A DNA stretch of 15,233 nucleotides, taken from positions 1 through 15,233 of IMG/VR virus record IMGVR_UViG_2585427789_000028; one strand, 5' to 3'. The position numbers and the translations under genes are program-made. The notes under the pieces were generated by a model, which was given only the letters and a program-made list of their open reading frames with translations, made no database searches and was not told the origin of the DNA. The stretch comes from a virus (lineage: Duplodnaviria; Heunggongvirae; Uroviricota; Caudoviricetes). Below, piece by piece: positions 7,480 through 15,233 of this stretch (its first letter is position 1; each line of letters starts with the position of its first letter).

Positions 7480-8001
7480 TTACCTAAAAAACCACATATG
7501 GATATCACATACGACCCAGTACATAACCGGATGCCGCCACGGGAATCTTTCGGGACCACCAGGATATAAACTTTTTTCCTTGCTGTACCGGTGAAACTCC
7601 GCCATCACATCGTCAATGGTGACGCCAAGAACCATCTTGCTGTCTTTGCACCACTTGATGAATTGCCCAGGCGACGGCCAGAACGGAGATTCACTGGCGC
7701 GGGCGTGGCGCATACCAGCAGAAACTTGTTCACGGGTTCGGATCCCCCCTTCGGCAAACGCAGCAATCCACTGCTGTTTTGCAGCAACTTCCTGCTCTGG
7801 CGTCTTCAGGTTGGTTACCACTGCCGCCGGAAACAGTTGTTTCAGCTGTTTGAAAAGGGTATCAACAAGCCTCTCTGCTGACATGTTCACCACGTTGTCA
7901 TTGTTGGTGTACTGATGCTCATAACCTGACATGCGAGAAAGGGCTTCTCCGTCACGGTTTTGTATCGCGGTAAAAACGTTGTTCACAAGAAATCCTCCCA
8001 T
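7480..8001 (-). CDS. Lambda P-like replication protein (helicase loader), apparently C-terminally truncated
   Basis: Translation FPAAVVTNLK...WIAAFAEGGIRTREQVSAGMRHARASESPFWPSPGQFIKWCKDS aligns by eye with the lambda P N-terminal half (FPASLANRDQ...WVLAFRENGITTMEQVNAGMRVARRQNRPFLPSPGQFVAWCREE). The ORF ends about 80 residues short of lambda P (233 aa) just before the tailspike. Start codon uncertain. Confidence 0.65.
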   Translation of the reverse strand: MGGFLVNNVFTAIQNRDGEALSRMSGYEHQYTNNDNVVNMSAERLVDTLFKQLKQLFPAAVVTNLKTPEQEVAAKQQWIAAFAEGGIRTREQVSAGMRHARASESPFWPSPGQFIKWCKDSKMVLGVTIDDVMAEFHRYSKEKSLYPGGPERFPWRHPVMYWVVCDIHMWFFR

Positions 8002-9395: not shown

Positions 9396-9549
9396 AGCTA
9401 TTGCCTGATATTTATTTCAGATAATAAATATTCACCCATAAGGTAACAAAAATCAAGGATAGTTACCTATGGGGTGCATTTACCTGTTGGGTAATATTGC
9501 TTTAAATTGAATCATCTACTGATTCATATATGAGGCGATTTTCCAGAAA
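9396..9549. promoter_or_regulatory. Divergent promoter/operator region of the immunity switch with repeated TTACC-N4-GGGT(AAT) palindromes
   Basis: Sites at 9463-9475 (TTACC-TATG-GGGT) and 9480-9495 (TTACC-TGTT-GGGTAAT), plus AGGTAAC at 9441-9447, between divergent Cro-like and repressor genes. Confidence 0.55.
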
Positions 9550-10134
9550 ATGAAAAGTATCCAGGACGTCCGCAGGCAAAATCTCAACGACTTGATCGAC
9601 CGTGAATTCAATGGTGTTCAGACGCGGATGGCTGAAAAACTTGGAACTCAGGCAAATCTGGTAAACCGCTGGGCTCTTGGCAAGAAGGTTATCGGCGACC
9701 AGGTTGCACGAAAAATTGAAGCTGCCGCCAATAAACCCCGTAACTGGCTTGATATTGATCGCTCGCTTTCTCAGGAGGGTTTTCAGCCTGTCGGCCCGAG
9801 TGATATAGGTCAGCTGGCGGCTCACAACCTGGAACGCTGGATGAGCGAAAGCCGCGACCTTTCAACGCAGGGAAAACTACACCGCGCATCCGGCGTCGCC
9901 CAGGTGACAATCAGCCGCCTGTTAAACAATGAGGTCAGCGTTTCCATTTCCACCCTGGAGAATGTTGCATCCGCATTCGGGCGTCACGGCTATGAATTAC
10001 TGATTCACCCGCACGACCCTGCGACCATCAACTATGATCGCTCGCGCTACGCATTGTTACCCGAAACCGAGAAAGCAAAGATCGAAAGTTACATTGAATT
10101 TGTCATCAACCAGAACGAAAAAAACAAACAATAA
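9550..10134 (+). CDS. Prophage repressor candidate with two HTH (XRE-type) domains and no recognisable LexA/S24 peptidase domain
   Basis: 194 aa. HTH-like segments GVQTRMAEKLGTQANLVNRW and GKLHRASGVAQVTISRLLNNE. Sits in the cI position, has its own terminator, and is flanked on both sides by operator-like palindromes. Confidence 0.65.
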   Translation: MKSIQDVRRQNLNDLIDREFNGVQTRMAEKLGTQANLVNRWALGKKVIGDQVARKIEAAANKPRNWLDIDRSLSQEGFQPVGPSDIGQLAAHNLERWMSESRDLSTQGKLHRASGVAQVTISRLLNNEVSVSISTLENVASAFGRHGYELLIHPHDPATINYDRSRYALLPETEKAKIESYIEFVINQNEKNKQ

Positions 10135-10155
10135 AATCATATTTTTCAGTAAGTA

Positions 10156-10179
10156 AGCCGCCTTCTGGCGGCTTTTTTA
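10156..10179 (+). terminator. Rho-independent terminator after the repressor gene
   Basis: AGCCGCC-TTCT-GGCGGCT followed by TTTTTT. Confidence 0.65.
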
Positions 10180-10187
10180 TTGCCTAT

Positions 10188-10287
10188 TCGATTACCTAAT
10201 GGGTAATTTTTTTAACTCATATCTATTGACACCAAACCAGATACGCATAATTATTACCTCAACGGTAACAGACCGAGGTAACAAGTT
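10188..10287 (+). promoter_or_regulatory. Early (PL-like) promoter with flanking operator palindromes
   Basis: TTGACA at 10226-10231, 17-nt spacer, AATTAT at 10249-10254. Operator-like sites ATTACC-TAAT-GGGTAAT (10191-10207) and TTACC-TCAAC-GGTAAC (10255-10270), plus AGGTAAC at 10276-10282. Confidence 0.5.
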
Positions 10288-10440
10288 ATGCAGTGGAAAA
10301 TCATCAACGGTTGGTACTGCGTTACTGCATGCGGATTCATGAGCTGGAAGTTCCGCACCTTACAGGAAGGCATTAAGTGGGCTTTCGTCAGCAAAGAAGC
10401 TCGCGATGTGGCCAACGATAACGAGATATGGGAGGGCTGA
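10288..10440 (+). CDS. Small protein (50 aa), first gene of the early operon; function unknown
   Basis: ATG at 10288 with GAGGT 8 nt upstream; stop TGA at 10438-10440. Translates MQWKIINGWYCVTACGFMSWKFRTLQEGIKWAFVSKEARDVANDNEIWEG. Not in the supplied ORF track (below its length cutoff). Confidence 0.4.
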   Translation: MQWKIINGWYCVTACGFMSWKFRTLQEGIKWAFVSKEARDVANDNEIWEG

Positions 10441-10442
10441 TA

Positions 10443-10742
10443 ATGAACGTTAATCAGCAGAAAAATCTTCAAAAAATCATGCTGGCATTCGACAAGGACT
10501 ACCGCCTGTCAGAACAGCTATATGACCGACAAGTTGAACTGATTGAGAGTATCCGGCTTCATCAACTGGCATCAACTTTCGACGTTGTAACAGTTAAAGG
10601 CGTTCGCCAGGAAGTACTGGAGGCCGCTAAAGACAGCCCTGAGTTCGAAGAACTAATGGATGCCTACCGGCGCGAGGCAATGGCAATTATCGCCCGCTGG
10701 GATCTGGCTGATCAGATTGATGGGCAGAGGGACGCGGCATGA
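10443..10742 (+). CDS. Hypothetical early protein (99 aa) immediately upstream of the recombination genes
   Basis: Start chosen at the ATG with GGAGGG SD (MNVNQQKNL...). Stop overlaps the exonuclease start (ATGA). Confidence 0.55.
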   Translation: MNVNQQKNLQKIMLAFDKDYRLSEQLYDRQVELIESIRLHQLASTFDVVTVKGVRQEVLEAAKDSPEFEELMDAYRREAMAIIARWDLADQIDGQRDAA

Positions 10743-11560
10743 ATCCGGGAATTTATTTCGATATCAGCAACGAGGACTACCACGCCGGTGACGGCGTGAG
10801 TAAGTCGCAGCTAGATATGGTGGCTAAGAACCCTGCCCTTCTGAAATGGGTGAAGGCTGCTCCGGAAGACGAAGAGAAGAAGTCTGCACTGGACATGGGT
10901 ACTGCTCTGCACTGTCTGCTTCTGGAACCTGGAGAGTTTGACAAACGCTTCATCGTTTCACCGAAATTCGATCGTCGGACAAAACAAGGTAAAGCTGACG
11001 AAGAGGCATTTATTCGTGATGTAGCGGATATGGGGATTTCGGTACTTGATGCAGAGCAGTGGCGAAAACTGGAGCTGATGCGTGATAGCGCAATGGCTCA
11101 CCCGGCGGCACGCTGGATGTTGGAAGCACCTGGTTACTGCGAAGCATCAATGTACTGGAACGATGAAGATACGGGTGAGTTGTGCCGAATTCGTCCAGAC
11201 AAATGGCTGAAAGAGCACAACGTGATCGTCGACGTGAAAAAGGTTGCAGATATGGACCGTTTTGCACGCCACATCGAGGAGTTCCGCTACCACGTGCAGG
11301 ACGCAATGTACCGCGAAGGCGCAATGAGGGTTACTGGTCAGCCACATGGTTTTTTCTTTCTTGCCGTGAGCGAAAGCATTGATTGTGGTCGGTATCCGGT
11401 ACGCGTGTTCGAGCTGGATGCGCCGGATGTCGATGCCGGGCACGCTCTGTTCCGCCGGGATCTGAATACCTATCACGAATGCCGCATCAACGATGAATGG
11501 GGCGGAGTGGAAATTATTAAACGCCCTGACTGGGCACGTAAACAGGATATGTACGTATGA
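10739..11560 (+). CDS. PD-(D/E)XK-family recombination exonuclease (RecE-like nuclease domain)
   Basis: 273 aa. Contains IRPD...IVDVKK consistent with a PD-(D/E)xK active site. Translationally coupled to, and directly upstream of, the annealing-protein gene. Confidence 0.7.
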   Translation: MNPGIYFDISNEDYHAGDGVSKSQLDMVAKNPALLKWVKAAPEDEEKKSALDMGTALHCLLLEPGEFDKRFIVSPKFDRRTKQGKADEEAFIRDVADMGISVLDAEQWRKLELMRDSAMAHPAARWMLEAPGYCEASMYWNDEDTGELCRIRPDKWLKEHNVIVDVKKVADMDRFARHIEEFRYHVQDAMYREGAMRVTGQPHGFFFLAVSESIDCGRYPVRVFELDAPDVDAGHALFRRDLNTYHECRINDEWGGVEIIKRPDWARKQDMYV

Positions 11561-12438
11561 GCAATGATATCGCAATCACATCACAACCAGGCGCAACTGT
11601 AGGCACTGCTGCGGCAATCTTCAGCCCCGAGGGCATGAATCAACTGGTGCGTTTCGCGGAGTTGATGTCACAAAGCAAAGCGACTGTACCGAAACATCTT
11701 GAAGGCAAACCTGCCGATTGCCTGGCGGTGACCATGCAGGCGGCACAGTGGGGAATGAACCCTTTCGCCGTGGCGCAGAAAACGCATGTGGTAAACGGAA
11801 CGTTAGGCTACGAAGCACAGTTGGTAAACGCGGTCGTATCCTCTTCCAGCCTGCTGGCGACACGCCTGAATTATCGCTGGAGCGGTGACTGGTCGAATGT
11901 TAACGGCAAAACAGATAAATCACCGAATCTGACGGTAACTGTGTCAGCAGTTCTTAAAGGAGAAGCAGAACCACGTGAGCTTACCATCAGTATGGCGCAA
12001 GCAGGAGTGCGTAACTCTCCATTGTGGGAACAGGATCCGCGCCAGCAACTTGCCTATCTTTGCACGAAACGATGGGCTCGCCTGCACGCTCCTGATGTAC
12101 TTCTCGGTGTTTACACCCCTGACGAATTACAGGAAACGGCACCGCGCGTTGAGCGAGACATTACTCCGCAAATGACTACGGCTGCGGGAATGAACAGTCT
12201 GATCAACGCTAAATCAGTGAAAAAGCCTGATGAGCAAACGCGTAAAGCGGATAGCCGTGAGCCAGAAGAAATGCTGATGGCCTTTACCAGCGCAGCGATG
12301 AATTACAGCACTGTCTCCGAACTGGATAAGGCTTACAAATACATTGCACAAAAACTTTCAGATGATGACGAACTGCTGGCAAAAGCCACCGACGTTTACA
12401 GCGTTCGTCGGGAAGAATTAAACGAAACATCTATGTAA
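11557..12438 (+). CDS. Single-strand annealing protein of the RecT/Red-beta superfamily
   Basis: 293 aa. Segments MQAAQWGMNPFAVAQK and SPLWEQDPRQQLAYLCTKRWARL resemble lambda Bet (ANQYGLNPWTKE, GPWQSHPKRMLRHKAMIQCARL) as recalled from memory. ATGA overlap with the nuclease gene. Confidence 0.8.
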   Translation: MSNDIAITSQPGATVGTAAAIFSPEGMNQLVRFAELMSQSKATVPKHLEGKPADCLAVTMQAAQWGMNPFAVAQKTHVVNGTLGYEAQLVNAVVSSSSLLATRLNYRWSGDWSNVNGKTDKSPNLTVTVSAVLKGEAEPRELTISMAQAGVRNSPLWEQDPRQQLAYLCTKRWARLHAPDVLLGVYTPDELQETAPRVERDITPQMTTAAGMNSLINAKSVKKPDEQTRKADSREPEEMLMAFTSAAMNYSTVSELDKAYKYIAQKLSDDDELLAKATDVYSVRREELNETSM

Positions 12439-12487
12439 CCACCACCGCGGCGCCACGCGCGCCGCACTGCAACCAAGAGAGGTATTT

Positions 12488-12736
12488 ATGAAAGGTGCAT
12501 TAGGTAAGAAGGAACTCCTGGCGGTGGTGCCACTGTCATGGAGCACTATCGACCGTATGGAGCGCGCAGGGGAATTTCCTAAACGCTGGTATATCACCGA
12601 TAAACGCTGCGCATGGAACCGTGATGAAGTTGAGCGTTGGCTTGATGAACGTCAGGCAGCAAGCCCGGCAGAGTTCCAGGGTAAAAAACCTCCTGTTCAG
12701 CAACGTGTATATCGTCCTGTGAGCAACGCGGCATGA
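12488..12736 (+). CDS. AlpA-family small DNA-binding protein (excisionase or transcriptional regulator)
   Basis: 82 aa with GAGG SD. Pattern LLAVVPLSWSTIDRMERAGEFPKRWYI...W..DEVERWL matches the AlpA/phage-excisionase HTH family. Confidence 0.7.
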   Translation: MKGALGKKELLAVVPLSWSTIDRMERAGEFPKRWYITDKRCAWNRDEVERWLDERQAASPAEFQGKKPPVQQRVYRPVSNAA

Positions 12737-12849
12737 GTGTGCTGCTAAGGCACTGGAGCAAATGGTCAGGATGGTACTTATTCCTGGCCTCTGTTTCAGC
12801 ATGGCTTTATCTGCTGGCATTAATTTTCAGAGAGGGTTGGATTAAGTGA
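12733..12849 (+). CDS. Small hydrophobic peptide (38 aa, single predicted TM helix, Trp-rich), translationally coupled to the AlpA-like gene
   Basis: ATG overlaps the AlpA-like stop (ATGA). Translates MSVLLRHWSKWSGWYLFLASVSAWLYLLALIFREGWIK. Stop overlaps the GTG start of the next ORF. Not in the ORF track (below cutoff). Confidence 0.35.
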   Translation: MSVLLRHWSKWSGWYLFLASVSAWLYLLALIFREGWIK

Positions 12850-13145
12850 GAAAGTTAAGCCGACTTGAAAAATATCACATGAACAAGGTTTCAATGCGCA
12901 GCCCTTCAAAGGTTGTTGCCGTTACTCCTGCGGCGATAGAGATCGAAAAACGCGCGATTGAAAGAGAGAAAAAAGGGCAGTTCCGCATTGCCGCCCACCT
13001 TTGGCTTCAGTGTATGGATGTTGCTTCTGGTGATGTTGAACGTGCAAGGATCGCGGTTCGCAGGGACCAATGTATCACAAAAGGTAACGGCCTTCGCCGT
13101 GGCGACTATAGCGGCATAGGATGTTGTGGGGTGGTTTATGACTAA
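12846..13145 (+). CDS. Hypothetical small protein (99 aa), possibly a PerC-like regulator
   Basis: GTG start overlapping the upstream stop (alternative ATG at 12880). The segment EKKGQFRIAAHLWLQCMDVASGDVERARIAVRRDQC loosely resembles PerC/Pch-family regulators from memory; unverified. Confidence 0.45.
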   Translation: MRKLSRLEKYHMNKVSMRSPSKVVAVTPAAIEIEKRAIEREKKGQFRIAAHLWLQCMDVASGDVERARIAVRRDQCITKGNGLRRGDYSGIGCCGVVYD

Positions 13146-13788
13146 GAAATACACACTAATCTATGCAGATCCACCCTGGGCATACCGGGACAAAGCCACA
13201 GATGGTAATCGCGGTGCCGGTTTTAAATATCCGGTTATGAGTGTGCTGGATATCTGCCGCCTTCCTGTGTGGGATTTGGCCGGTGAAAACTGTCTGTTGG
13301 CCATGTGGTGGGTGCCAACACAACCACTCGAAGCACTAAAAGTTGTTGAAGCCTGGGGATTCCGTCTGATGACCATGAAGGGCTTCACGTGGATAAAATG
13401 TGGTAGTCGACAACCAGATAAACTGGTTATGGGGATGGGACACATGACTCGCGCCAACAGTGAAGATTGCCTGTTTGCGGTAAAGGGAAAACTACCTCCG
13501 CGCATTAATGCAGGTATCGTTCAGTCATTTACCGCACCGCGGCTTGAGCATTCAAGAAAACCAGATGTCGTTCGTGAAAAACTTGTGCAATTGTTAGGCG
13601 ATGTTTCTCGCATTGAACTGTTCGCCAGACAGTCGTCTCATGGCTTCGATGTTTGGGGTAATCAGTGCGAAGACCCGGCAGTGCAACTACACCCAGGATA
13701 CGCGTTGGATATTGCCGGATTAACAAATGCATTCAGCAATGCTCCGCTGTCACCAACAGACAACCAGGGGCGGGAGCGTGCAGCATGA
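13138..13788 (+). CDS. N6-adenine DNA methyltransferase, MT-A70-like, with no adjacent restriction endonuclease in the window
   Basis: DPPW motif (LIYADPPWAY) near the N-terminus, typical of adenine-N6 methyltransferases. Start ATG at 13138 overlaps the upstream stop (ATGACTAA); the ORF track's 13126 would be a GTG start. Confidence 0.8.
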   Translation: MTKKYTLIYADPPWAYRDKATDGNRGAGFKYPVMSVLDICRLPVWDLAGENCLLAMWWVPTQPLEALKVVEAWGFRLMTMKGFTWIKCGSRQPDKLVMGMGHMTRANSEDCLFAVKGKLPPRINAGIVQSFTAPRLEHSRKPDVVREKLVQLLGDVSRIELFARQSSHGFDVWGNQCEDPAVQLHPGYALDIAGLTNAFSNAPLSPTDNQGRERAA

Positions 13789-13979
13789 ACAGGGCATCAC
13801 CAGCAGATTTAAGGAAATGCCTTGAAACTGCAAACATGCTTGCACACAGCGGGATCAGGTTTGTTCCAATTCCCGCTGTCACTGATGCTGAATTTGCAAC
13901 ACTGTCAGCAATATTCACAGATAAAATTGAATCACTGGCAGCAGAAGCCGAGATGGAAGAAAATCAGCAGAACTATTAA
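13785..13979 (+). CDS. Hypothetical small protein (64 aa), translationally coupled to the methyltransferase
   Basis: ATG at 13785 overlaps the methyltransferase TGA (ATGA). Stop at 13977-13979, 3 nt from the convergent integrase stop. Confidence 0.45.
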   Translation: MNRASPADLRKCLETANMLAHSGIRFVPIPAVTDAEFATLSAIFTDKIESLAAEAEMEENQQNY

Positions 13980-13982
13980 ACG

Positions 13983-15233
13983 TTATTCCCCCGCCATCCA
14001 CTTCTCAAACTTCGACGGGGAGAACGGAATCAGATCCGTATGCTCCCCGTTAATCCAAGAATCAATCATATCGGCCCACTGCTGCAACATGTAGGCGCGC
14101 TGTCTGGCGTATTCCGCTTTGTTATATACGGCGCGCACACCTTTCTGCTCATGTGCCAGAGCCTTTTCAATCCAGTCTGAAGGATAACCAGCCTCATGCA
14201 ACAACGTACTGGCTGTACGGCGCATATCGTGTACGGTGAAGTCCTGAATATGCTCACCATCTTCATTTATTATTTTCACCGTTCTGTCGATCAGAGAGTT
14301 CAGCGCGGCATTAGATAATGGCTTCCGGAAATTGTAACGACCAGGAACCAGATATTCACTTCCACCAGCGCACATCTGCAACCCGACCAATATATCCTGA
14401 ACCTGTTTAGGCAGGTAAATAACATGCGCCCGGCTTCCCTTCATGCGGTCTGAAGGAATTGTCCATGTCCATTTTTTAAAATCTATTTCATCCCACGTTG
14501 CATTGGTGAATTCGCCCTTACGAACCATAGTGATAAGCACCAGTTTTAAAGCCATTTTCATAGTGCCCATAGCACCAATGGCATCCAACGTGCGGAAGAA
14601 CAGGCCAATTTCTTCTGGTGTCAGTGTTCGCTCTCGTGGTTTAAATATGGCGATAGACGAAGGTTTAATGTCAGCCGCAGGATTAAACAAACCATGACCA
14701 CGGTCATTGGCGTGACGGTATACGCTGCTGATGATCTCCCTGGCCTGTACTGCTGTTGCCCGACCACCGCGTTCGACAATCCGGTCACACAAATCACGAA
14801 CCATCGATGTGGTAATTTCAGCCATCATTTTGTTGCCAAGAACCGGAAGTATGTCACGGTCGATCACCGCCTGCTTCATTGCGCGGGTACTGTCAGCCAG
14901 GATGACGTGTTTCATATAACTGTCGGTATGTACCGCAAACGTCTCGGCACCACGAATTTTTTTGATACCGTCACGTTTAGCCGCAGCCGGCGACTGGCCT
15001 GCTTTAAGCAGCTTCTTTGCAGCAATCAGTTCTTCTCGCGCTTCTGCCAGGCTGATACCGTCACGCCCATACTGCCCGATTACCAGTGTTTCGCGGCGAC
15101 CGTTGATACGGTAGTCATAGCGAAACGAGACCGTGCCTGACGTAAGCACAGCTACATACAGCCCGTCACGATCGGAGACCTTGTACAGTTTGTCCTGCGG
15201 CTTGAGGTTTTTTAATTTTGTATCGGTAAGCAC
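13983..15233 (-). CDS. Tyrosine integrase, P4-like family (partial: N-terminus at or beyond the window edge)
   Basis: 416-aa ORF reaching the window end. N-terminal arm-binding-like sequence LTDTKLKNLKPQDKLYKVSDRDGLYVAVL; C-terminal catalytic region with HDMRRT...LAHE...Y typical of tyrosine recombinases. Confidence 0.9.
   Translation of the reverse strand: MLTDTKLKNLKPQDKLYKVSDRDGLYVAVLTSGTVSFRYDYRINGRRETLVIGQYGRDGISLAEAREELIAAKKLLKAGQSPAAAKRDGIKKIRGAETFAVHTDSYMKHVILADSTRAMKQAVIDRDILPVLGNKMMAEITTSMVRDLCDRIVERGGRATAVQAREIISSVYRHANDRGHGLFNPAADIKPSSIAIFKPRERTLTPEEIGLFFRTLDAIGAMGTMKMALKLVLITMVRKGEFTNATWDEIDFKKWTWTIPSDRMKGSRAHVIYLPKQVQDILVGLQMCAGGSEYLVPGRYNFRKPLSNAALNSLIDRTVKIINEDGEHIQDFTVHDMRRTASTLLHEAGYPSDWIEKALAHEQKGVRAVYNKAEYARQRAYMLQQWADMIDSWINGEHTDLIPFSPSKFEKWMAGE

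Follow-up and report, generated by a model that had tools for sequence, protein, structure and literature searches.

The stretch of DNA considered here (hereafter the window) is a 15,233-nucleotide (nt) tailed-phage record, IMGVR_UViG_2585427789_000028 (Caudoviricetes), which carries five tightly packed genes on one strand next to a convergent integrase gene. In order, they encode an AlpA-like protein, a hydrophobic peptide of 38 amino acids (aa; orf38), a PerC-like protein, an MT-A70-type methyltransferase and a 64-aa DUF1382 protein (Table 1). An earlier note on this DNA had read them as a chain of translationally coupled, strictly co-expressed genes. Its family calls for AlpA (PF05930), PerC (PF06069) and MT-A70 (PF05063) proved correct by profile search, the four overlapping stop and start codons (ATGA, GTGA, ATGACTAA and ATGA) all lie where it placed them, and the gap of 3 nt between the last stop codon (TAA, 13977-79) and the minus-strand integrase stop (13983-85) was confirmed. 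The genes are not a self-contained unit, but instead form the end of an operon of ~3.7 kb, of which they appear to be the distal third and which resembles the PL operon of lambda. In all likelihood they represent the promoter-distal end of a repressor-controlled early-left operon of a temperate phage of the phiV10/epsilon15 type (Uetakevirus), which persists as a defective remnant in Escherichia coli.

Table 1. Features of the early-left arm and the adjoining integrase gene, with positions in the window
Feature	Position	Strand	Product	Remarks
Intrinsic terminator after repressor gene	10155-10174	+		8-bp stem with 6 GC pairs, then TTTTTATT
PL/OL-like control region	10191-10269	+		Pattern scan
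Operator-like palindrome ATTACCTAATGGGTAA(T)	10191-10207			In PL/OL-like region
Promoter-like site TTGACA-17-AATTAT	10226-10254	+		Flanked or overlapped by the palindromes
Operator-like palindrome ATTACCTCAACGGTAA	10253-10268			In PL/OL-like region
Small early gene, phiV10 p39 homologue	10288-10440	+		PGAP annotation of near-identical E. coli strain AST205, phiV10 annotation, sequence
Small early gene, phiV10 p38 homologue	10443 or 10428 to 10742	+		Same basis as p39 homologue
RecE-like PD-(D/E)XK exonuclease gene	10739-11560	+		PF12684, E 2e-22; 4-nt overlaps on both sides
RecT-family recombinase gene	11557-12438	+		AST205 PGAP annotation among the evidence
GC-rich hairpin GCGGCGC-CACGC-GCGCCGC	12447-12465	+		Perfect 7-bp stem; in the 49-nt recT-alpA gap
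alpA-like gene	12488-12736	+	82 aa	Script translation of the window
orf38	12733-12849	+	38 aa	Joined to alpA via ATGA overlap
PerC-like gene	12846-13145	+	99 aa	GTGA overlap with orf38
MT-A70 methyltransferase gene	13138-13788	+	216 aa	ATGACTAA, 8-nt overlap with PerC-like gene
DUF1382 gene (orf63-like)	13785-13979	+	64 aa	ATGA overlap with methyltransferase gene
Tyrosine integrase gene	13983-15233	-		Arm-DNA-bind_3, Phage_int_M and Phage_integrase; convergent; window ends at its start codon

The five-gene block shares 97.9% nucleotide identity with genes p36-p32 of phiV10 (NC_007804.2), which are annotated as an AlpA-family regulator, a membrane protein, a PerC-family activator, a DNA methyltransferase and a DUF1382 protein. 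It is ~76% identical to the corresponding region of Salmonella phage epsilon15 (gp33-gp29; NC_004775.2) and of related Enterobacter and Klebsiella phages. Both phiV10 and epsilon15 share the genes, their order, the overlaps and the convergent integrase with the window, and the same gene order recurs in eight relatives. Epsilon15 differs from the window in an extra 35-aa gene, in intergenic gaps around the methyltransferase gene and in the lack of DUF1382. The block was found in 559 of 5426 complete E. coli genomes (~10%), and the whole window was matched in a single one of them, strain AST205, between yfgI and guaA. Compared with phiV10, the prophage in the window is a deletion remnant of ~14 kb, lying between yfgI (533-1072) and guaA, in which the early-left arm is intact and ~25 kb is gone (phiV10 coordinates about 34734-39104 and 1-20916). 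The replication gene P is cut at about position 7500 (truncated gene, 7480-8001), its cut end adjoining the sequence immediately before the tail-fibre gene, and with this deletion junction the terminase, portal, capsid and most tail genes have been lost. As a chain of genes, the block is thus an already annotated and widespread phage operon segment with typical packing, and its observation adds nothing new.

The packing itself can be judged from the phiV10 annotation, in which 24 of the 45 same-strand junctions overlap (12 by 4 nt and 3 by 8 nt), so that a five-gene chain is not unusual. Further runs of six and five consecutive overlaps occur elsewhere in that genome, and upstream in the operon of the window the p38/recE-like and recE-like/recT junctions each overlap by 4 nt. 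The same overlaps (-4/-4/-8/-4) recur in the diverged relatives epsilon15, Tyrion, SPN1S, PAT1 and the Klebsiella phages. The only debatable junction is the GTG start of the PerC-like gene, for which RefSeq phiV10 uses an ATG 33 nt later, at window position 12879. Considering that the PerC-like genes of relatives start at an ATGA overlap, that the residues LEKYH encoded upstream of the RefSeq ATG are conserved, and that the Shine-Dalgarno energy is -7.0 kcal/mol for the GTG as against +0.4 kcal/mol (no match) for the ATG, the overlapping start is supported, and the start of the phiV10 gene (p34) was probably set 33 nt too late in RefSeq.

The evidence for a longer operon lies upstream. The repressor gene (9550-10134) is oriented as the five genes and is followed by a strong intrinsic terminator, at a place where phiV10 is also annotated with one. 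Beyond it, a promoter-like site is accompanied by two operator-like palindromes of the form TTACC-N6-GGTAA, a form shared by the sites that are annotated as repressor-binding in epsilon15 before the first gene of the operon. Palindromes of that form are also present in the repressor/cro-like divergent region of the window (9430-9492), and their occurrence both there and at the PL-like promoter fits control of both early operons by a single repressor. A pattern scan of the plus strand from 10174 to 14999 detected no terminator-like site other than a weak one at 14999, folding of 13930-14060 gave no hairpin followed by a U-run, and an Rfam scan of the whole window returned no match. A stable hairpin was noted in the 3' part of the integrase gene (14013-14051; z-score of the 131-nt fold -2.3), which has no plus-strand U-run. 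The junction of recT and alpA is the sole non-overlapping one in the operon. The GC-rich hairpin located there is not an intrinsic terminator, as no U-run follows it; the corresponding gap of epsilon15 also contains an annotated stem-loop ("transcriptional pausing"), and the element could serve as a processing or pause site separating the recombination genes from the excision genes.

These sequence patterns suggest a model of transcription. The transcript would start at the PL-like promoter overlapping the repressor operators, just past the terminator of the repressor gene, and would cross the two small early genes, the recE/recT-like genes, the GC-rich hairpin and then alpA, orf38 and the PerC-like, methyltransferase and orf63-like genes. 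As no intrinsic terminator follows, it would continue antisense into the convergent integrase gene, where Rho would probably end it and where it may disturb the expression of the integrase. The co-transcription of the five genes and their read-in to the integrase gene, both proposed in the earlier note, are thus supported by the pattern scan. Because the promoter is predicted to be repressor-controlled, the five genes are expected to be silent in the lysogen and to be switched on together after derepression or infection. Two points weigh against the operon model. The promoter, the operators and the absence of a terminator are pattern matches only, and the prophage is defective, with P truncated and the region carrying the Bro-N (antirepressor-like) gene p23 of phiV10 deleted.

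The predicted operon is comparable with the PL operon and exo-xis region of lambda (exo, bet, orf60a/63/61, xis, int). In both, the repressor gene and the early-left operon are co-oriented, and recombination genes are followed by small accessory genes and then by an excision function adjoining the integrase; moreover, one of the accessory genes here is a true orf63 homologue. In contrast to lambda, the integrase gene of the window is inverted and therefore cannot be read from this operon, and the excision protein is of the AlpA type rather than lambda Xis. The operon described here also carries a methyltransferase gene, which lambda is not known to have.

The AlpA-like protein, a winged-helix protein by family, matched PF05930 at 24.2 bits (cutoff 21), phrog_66 ("excisionase and transcriptional regulator", E 2e-16) and the structure PDB 8C3T ("AlpA family phage regulatory protein", E 1.8e-11), for which a literature search found no paper. 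The ratio of nonsynonymous to synonymous substitution rates (dN/dS) of alpA is 0.04-0.08, and an integrase with an Arm-DNA-bind_3 domain, whose phiV10 homologue is annotated as INT_P4 (P4-type), is encoded 1.25 kb downstream. Based on its family and the nearby P4-type integrase, the protein is a probable excisionase/regulator, which would act as a recombination directionality factor for the neighbouring integrase and/or as an activator of it.

The PerC-like protein matched PF06069 at 30.1 bits (cutoff 22.6) over model positions 5-50 of 90 only, and phrog_868 with an E-value of 6e-62; a match to ANR (AraC negative regulator) stayed below threshold (23.6 bits, cutoff 32). It is predicted to be a small PerC/ANR-like regulator. 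The effect on LEE1 of PerC-like proteins encoded by mobile elements is reported to vary, from activation through no effect to repression (PMC11773190). The 64-aa protein matched PF07131 (DUF1382) over its full length (105.7 bits, positions 1-60 of 60) and PDB 8DSB over residues 2-62 (E 6e-13). The latter is the NMR structure of lambda Orf63, a dimeric protein of the early exo-xis region that promotes lytic development (PMC10869804). By this match, the 64-aa protein is identified as a homologue of lambda Orf63 and may modulate early development, like its counterparts in lambda and Stx phages.

The small peptide between the AlpA-like and PerC-like proteins corresponds to phiV10 p35 and epsilon15 gp32 and belongs to phrog_17484 (E 5e-27). 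Its hydrophobic core (residues ~14-32) is bordered by charged residues on either side, as in a single-helix membrane peptide, and the product would be a conserved single-pass membrane peptide, for which the toxin or exclusion role raised in the earlier note is conjectural. A simpler layout would be alpA, a spacer of 109 nt and the PerC-like gene, as in the PGAP annotation, with orf38 being a chance open reading frame (ORF). PGAP indeed leaves orf38 unannotated, no Pfam or NCBIfam match exists for it, and it has no Shine-Dalgarno sequence. Against the chance ORF, the frame is exactly 38 codons long, with both 4-nt overlaps conserved, in phages of E. coli, Salmonella (epsilon15, among others), Enterobacter (Tyrion) and Klebsiella (two phages), and is likewise open with both overlaps in SPN1S and PAT1; BUCT554 carries a shortened and diverged version. 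Across the E. coli, Salmonella, Enterobacter and Klebsiella phages, the dN/dS of orf38 is 0.13-0.26, with 66-79% pairwise amino-acid identity and 12-17 synonymous changes per comparison, which indicates purifying selection. A tblastn search against phages gave full-length orf38 in all 35 phage records containing it. In every examined locus orf38 was placed between the AlpA and PerC-like genes, the annotations of the other matches being consistent with this, and in the phage collection it was found in this phage group only. The chance-ORF layout is largely refuted by these data and is scarcely credible. The objection that the small ORFs might not be conserved, raised in the earlier note against its own proposal, fails for orf38 and for the full-length DUF1382/Orf63 homologue alike.

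The anti-Shine-Dalgarno energies further distinguish orf38 from its neighbours. Values of -8.9, -7.0, -7.7 and -7.8 kcal/mol were obtained for the alpA, PerC-like, methyltransferase and orf63-like genes, respectively, against a background with a mean of -2.0 kcal/mol and 6.7% of positions at -6 or lower, whereas orf38 has -1.9 kcal/mol and its relatives range from -0.9 to -4.9. Since the other genes of the chain have their own Shine-Dalgarno sequences, only orf38 looks dependent on re-initiation, and it is probably translated by re-initiation from alpA. Strict co-expression, as read from the overlapping codons, is accordingly plausible for orf38 but overstated at the translational level for the rest, because the PerC-like, methyltransferase and orf63-like genes can initiate independently. 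In translation, the overlapping gene ends of the chain would then behave as those at half of the phage junctions, with re-initiation needed for orf38 alone.

The methyltransferase matched PF05063 at 76.9 bits (cutoff 23.9) over profile positions 1-172 of 172, and its structural matches in the PDB included MTA1 (E 5e-13) and METTL3 (E 2e-5). The catalytic motif IV, DPPW, lies at residues 11-14 and is invariant in the family alignment (A1). The protein is predicted to be an orphan MT-A70 beta-class N6-adenine methyltransferase. The absence of a neighbouring endonuclease, pointed out in the earlier note, holds: its neighbours are the PerC-like and DUF1382 genes, PADLOC returned only MTase_II models, and apart from the RecE-like recombination exonuclease no nuclease was found in the operon.

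Two groups of studied enzymes bear on its substrate. Over residues 1-187, including a variable loop, the methyltransferase is 83% identical (E 1e-124) to M.EcoPA8orf6770P of the Stx2a phage PA8, and it shares the DPPW motif with this enzyme and with M.EcoGV of O104:H4. In PA8, too, the gene is situated towards the integrase end of the early region, with a DUF1382 gene after it. The window differs from PA8 in that it lacks a gene for the partner protein PNB-2 and instead has the PerC-like gene directly upstream, and in that the C-terminal tail after residue 187 is unrelated. The second group comprises Serratia phage BZS1 p32, to which the methyltransferase is 40% identical (E 4e-49), and the Tn1549 enzyme M.EfaBMDam. 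These proteins belong to the same prokaryotic MT-A70 subfamily and share all invariant core residues with it, and their genes are likewise orphans near an integrase or excisionase gene. An MboI/DpnI assay showed BZS1 p32 to be specific for GATC, and the protein has 41% identity with the Tn1549 enzyme, which is of that specificity as well (PMC7556043).

A Dam-like N6-methyladenine (m6A) activity on GATC sites in DNA, exerted on induction or infection, is the most likely activity of the methyltransferase by analogy with these enzymes, although it is held with a little less than even confidence. The GATC reading was chosen because M.EcoGV is reported to act in this way when expressed alone, because two more distant members of the family are GATC-specific and because PNB-2 is absent. 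M.EcoGV, which is highly similar, methylates GATC in vivo when overproduced without PNB-2, as relayed in PMC10810198, and REBASE annotates many relatives as GATC enzymes (PMC10810198). The remainder of the probability falls to a weakly active lone subunit, to a different specificity or to the alternatives discussed below.

Several observations weigh against GATC methylation. On its own, purified M.EcoPA8orf6770P was not significantly active in vitro, unmethylated GATC DNA being among the substrates, and the authors warn of off-target methylation by Dam-like enzymes when these are overproduced (PMC10810198); GATC methylation by the lone subunit may therefore be weak or artefactual. In addition, a loop at about residues 86-100 (window 13393-13437) is swapped wholesale among enzymes that are otherwise 75-81% identical, reading IKCGSRQPDKLVMG in the window and in Stx2a phages and HKTNKHKGNSAIG in epsilon15, Tyrion, SPN1S and a Klebsiella phage. 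Where the window enzyme has this short loop, the GATC-specific BZS1/HK639 type carries a 23-aa insertion (alignment A1). The segment is a possible substrate-recognition loop, and because of its variation and of the insertion the specificity may differ. Moreover, E. coli is already Dam+, and the advantage of a second GATC methylase is not evident. The observed/expected ratio of GATC, 0.79 in both phiV10 and the window, is uninformative on specificity. A relation to the non-specific methylase M.EcoGII was also considered and rejected, as M.EcoGII is a 349-aa DPPY protein and the paper describing it makes no mention of MT-A70 (PMC5778455).

The sole functional study of a close homologue points, by analogy, to the control of prophage induction through ribosomal RNA (rRNA) methylation. 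M.EcoPA8orf6770P raises spontaneous prophage induction in a DPPW-dependent manner (Gong et al., PMC10810198), and in a 1:1 complex with the upstream, co-expressed PNB-2 it shows a preference for 16S rRNA and 30S subunits (PMC10810198). The methyltransferase of the window might likewise work as a heteromer that methylates host 16S rRNA, not DNA, and tunes the frequency of prophage induction. Besides the 83% identity of the catalytic cores and the inactivity of the lone PA8 enzyme, the general need of MT-A70 enzymes for partner subunits (PMC10810198; PMC7544214) argues in the same direction. The partner, however, is absent here: tblastn with PA8 PNB-2 (PA8 locus positions 1074-1502) found a homologue neither in the window nor in the Uetakevirus loci examined, while it did match HK639_37 (54% identity). 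Furthermore, the tail beyond residue 187, which corresponds to the last ~27 aa of the STEC-type enzymes and is suggested by the authors to be relevant to PNB-2 binding, is unrelated in the window, and variants lacking this tail occur without PNB-2, according to the same authors (PMC10810198). No promoter was predicted before the methyltransferase gene, as opposed to the stationary-phase promoter of PA8 gp6-gp5 (PMC10810198). An rRNA-methylating heteromer is thus an unlikely explanation, and GATC methylation of DNA is preferred. Two candidates for PNB-2 or its equivalent were rejected. Of PA28 gp06, a 62-aa protein encoded upstream of the methyltransferase gene of Stx phage PA28, only the last 21 residues match the PA8 PNB-2 ORF, and Tyrion gp30, a winged-helix protein encoded directly upstream of the Tyrion methyltransferase gene, showed no similarity in a BLASTP comparison.

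In a further explanation, the methyltransferase of phiV10-type prophages would have lost, or never had, PNB-2 and would use a translationally coupled neighbour as its specificity subunit, either the PerC/ANR-like protein or the helix-binding Orf63-like dimer. Hints in this direction come from Serratia phage BZS1, in which the gene immediately before that of the GATC-specific MT-A70 enzyme is a genuine ANR gene (BZS1 locus 1322-2169), from the recurrence of the methyltransferase and DUF1382 pair in Stx2a phages, and from the partners typically needed by MT-A70 enzymes (PMC10810198). BLASTP gave no alignment between the PerC-like protein of the window and BZS1 ANR, and BZS1 ANR weakly matched the PerC-like protein of BUCT554 (E 3e-4). 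The neighbour-as-subunit explanation is decidedly improbable; if it were true, PerC-like or Orf63-like proteins of phages would be factors that target methyltransferases and select either DNA or RNA as the substrate. The anti-restriction or epigenetic roles proposed earlier for the methyltransferase are possible. Its significance lies in the close relationship with an enzyme reported to raise Stx-prophage induction via rRNA methylation (PMC10810198), as the version without PNB-2 in a common E. coli prophage constitutes a natural test case for the catalytic subunit alone. There are also gains for annotation, namely a conserved 38-aa gene missed by PGAP and a likely mis-set start of phiV10 p34.

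Comparison of the relatives also bears on whether the five genes form one dedicated system, such as a superinfection-exclusion or defence module in which a membrane toxin and a regulator are combined with a protective methylase. The tight overlaps would suit such a system, as would the AlpA/orf38/PerC-like triad, which is contiguous in nine of nine loci with overlapping junctions in most, and the confinement of orf38 to one phage group in the phage collection. Beyond the triad, however, the content varies. Relatives carry DUF1317, winged-helix or DGQHR/DndB-like genes, joined by overlaps, between the PerC-like and methyltransferase genes, and a DUF1382 gene downstream of the methyltransferase gene is restricted to the phiV10 type and the Stx2a phages, with unrelated genes or nothing in its place in other relatives. 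The Stx2a phages in turn have the methyltransferase and DUF1382 pair without the triad. The ATGAC(T)TAA junction after the PerC-like gene (window 13138-13145) is kept whether the methyltransferase gene follows, as in the window and phiV10, or the DUF1317 gene, as in relatives, and both of these proteins begin with MT. It looks as though modules had been exchanged or deleted precisely at the borders of genes. The varying gene content on both sides of the methyltransferase gene argues against a functional unit of five genes; in addition, PADLOC gave generic MTase_II models only, with no defence-system context, and overlaps are the norm in this genome. A single dedicated system is therefore very improbable, and the five genes are better regarded as the end of an early-left operon.

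In the SPN1S-type relatives, a DGQHR/DndB-like gene (~331-355 aa; 355 aa in SPN1S) immediately precedes the MT-A70 gene and overlaps it by 4 nt (SPN1S locus 3388-5045). The DGQHR and MT-A70 proteins could be a functional couple, in which case the methylase of SPN1S-type phages would not be strictly alone.

Outside the early-left arm, a search of AST205 for an att core gave only 11-nt repeats. The 11-mer ATACCGTCACC occurs at both prophage-host junction regions (AST205 locus positions 3751-3761 and 17650-17660), near Rz and upstream of the integrase gene, respectively. These repeats may be arm-type sites of the integrase, suggesting that both att arms survive in the remnant. The tail-fibre gene (4351-7425) encodes a 1024-aa protein with a C-terminal Peptidase_S74 chaperone domain, and a divergent acyltransferase-like gene (3268-4179) gave a weak hexapeptide match. 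Both genes (3268-7425) are absent from, or weakly similar to, the phiV10 genome, and as they sit where the tailspike and O-acetyltransferase genes of phiV10 lie, a different O-antigen specificity and a different module for serotype conversion are suggested.

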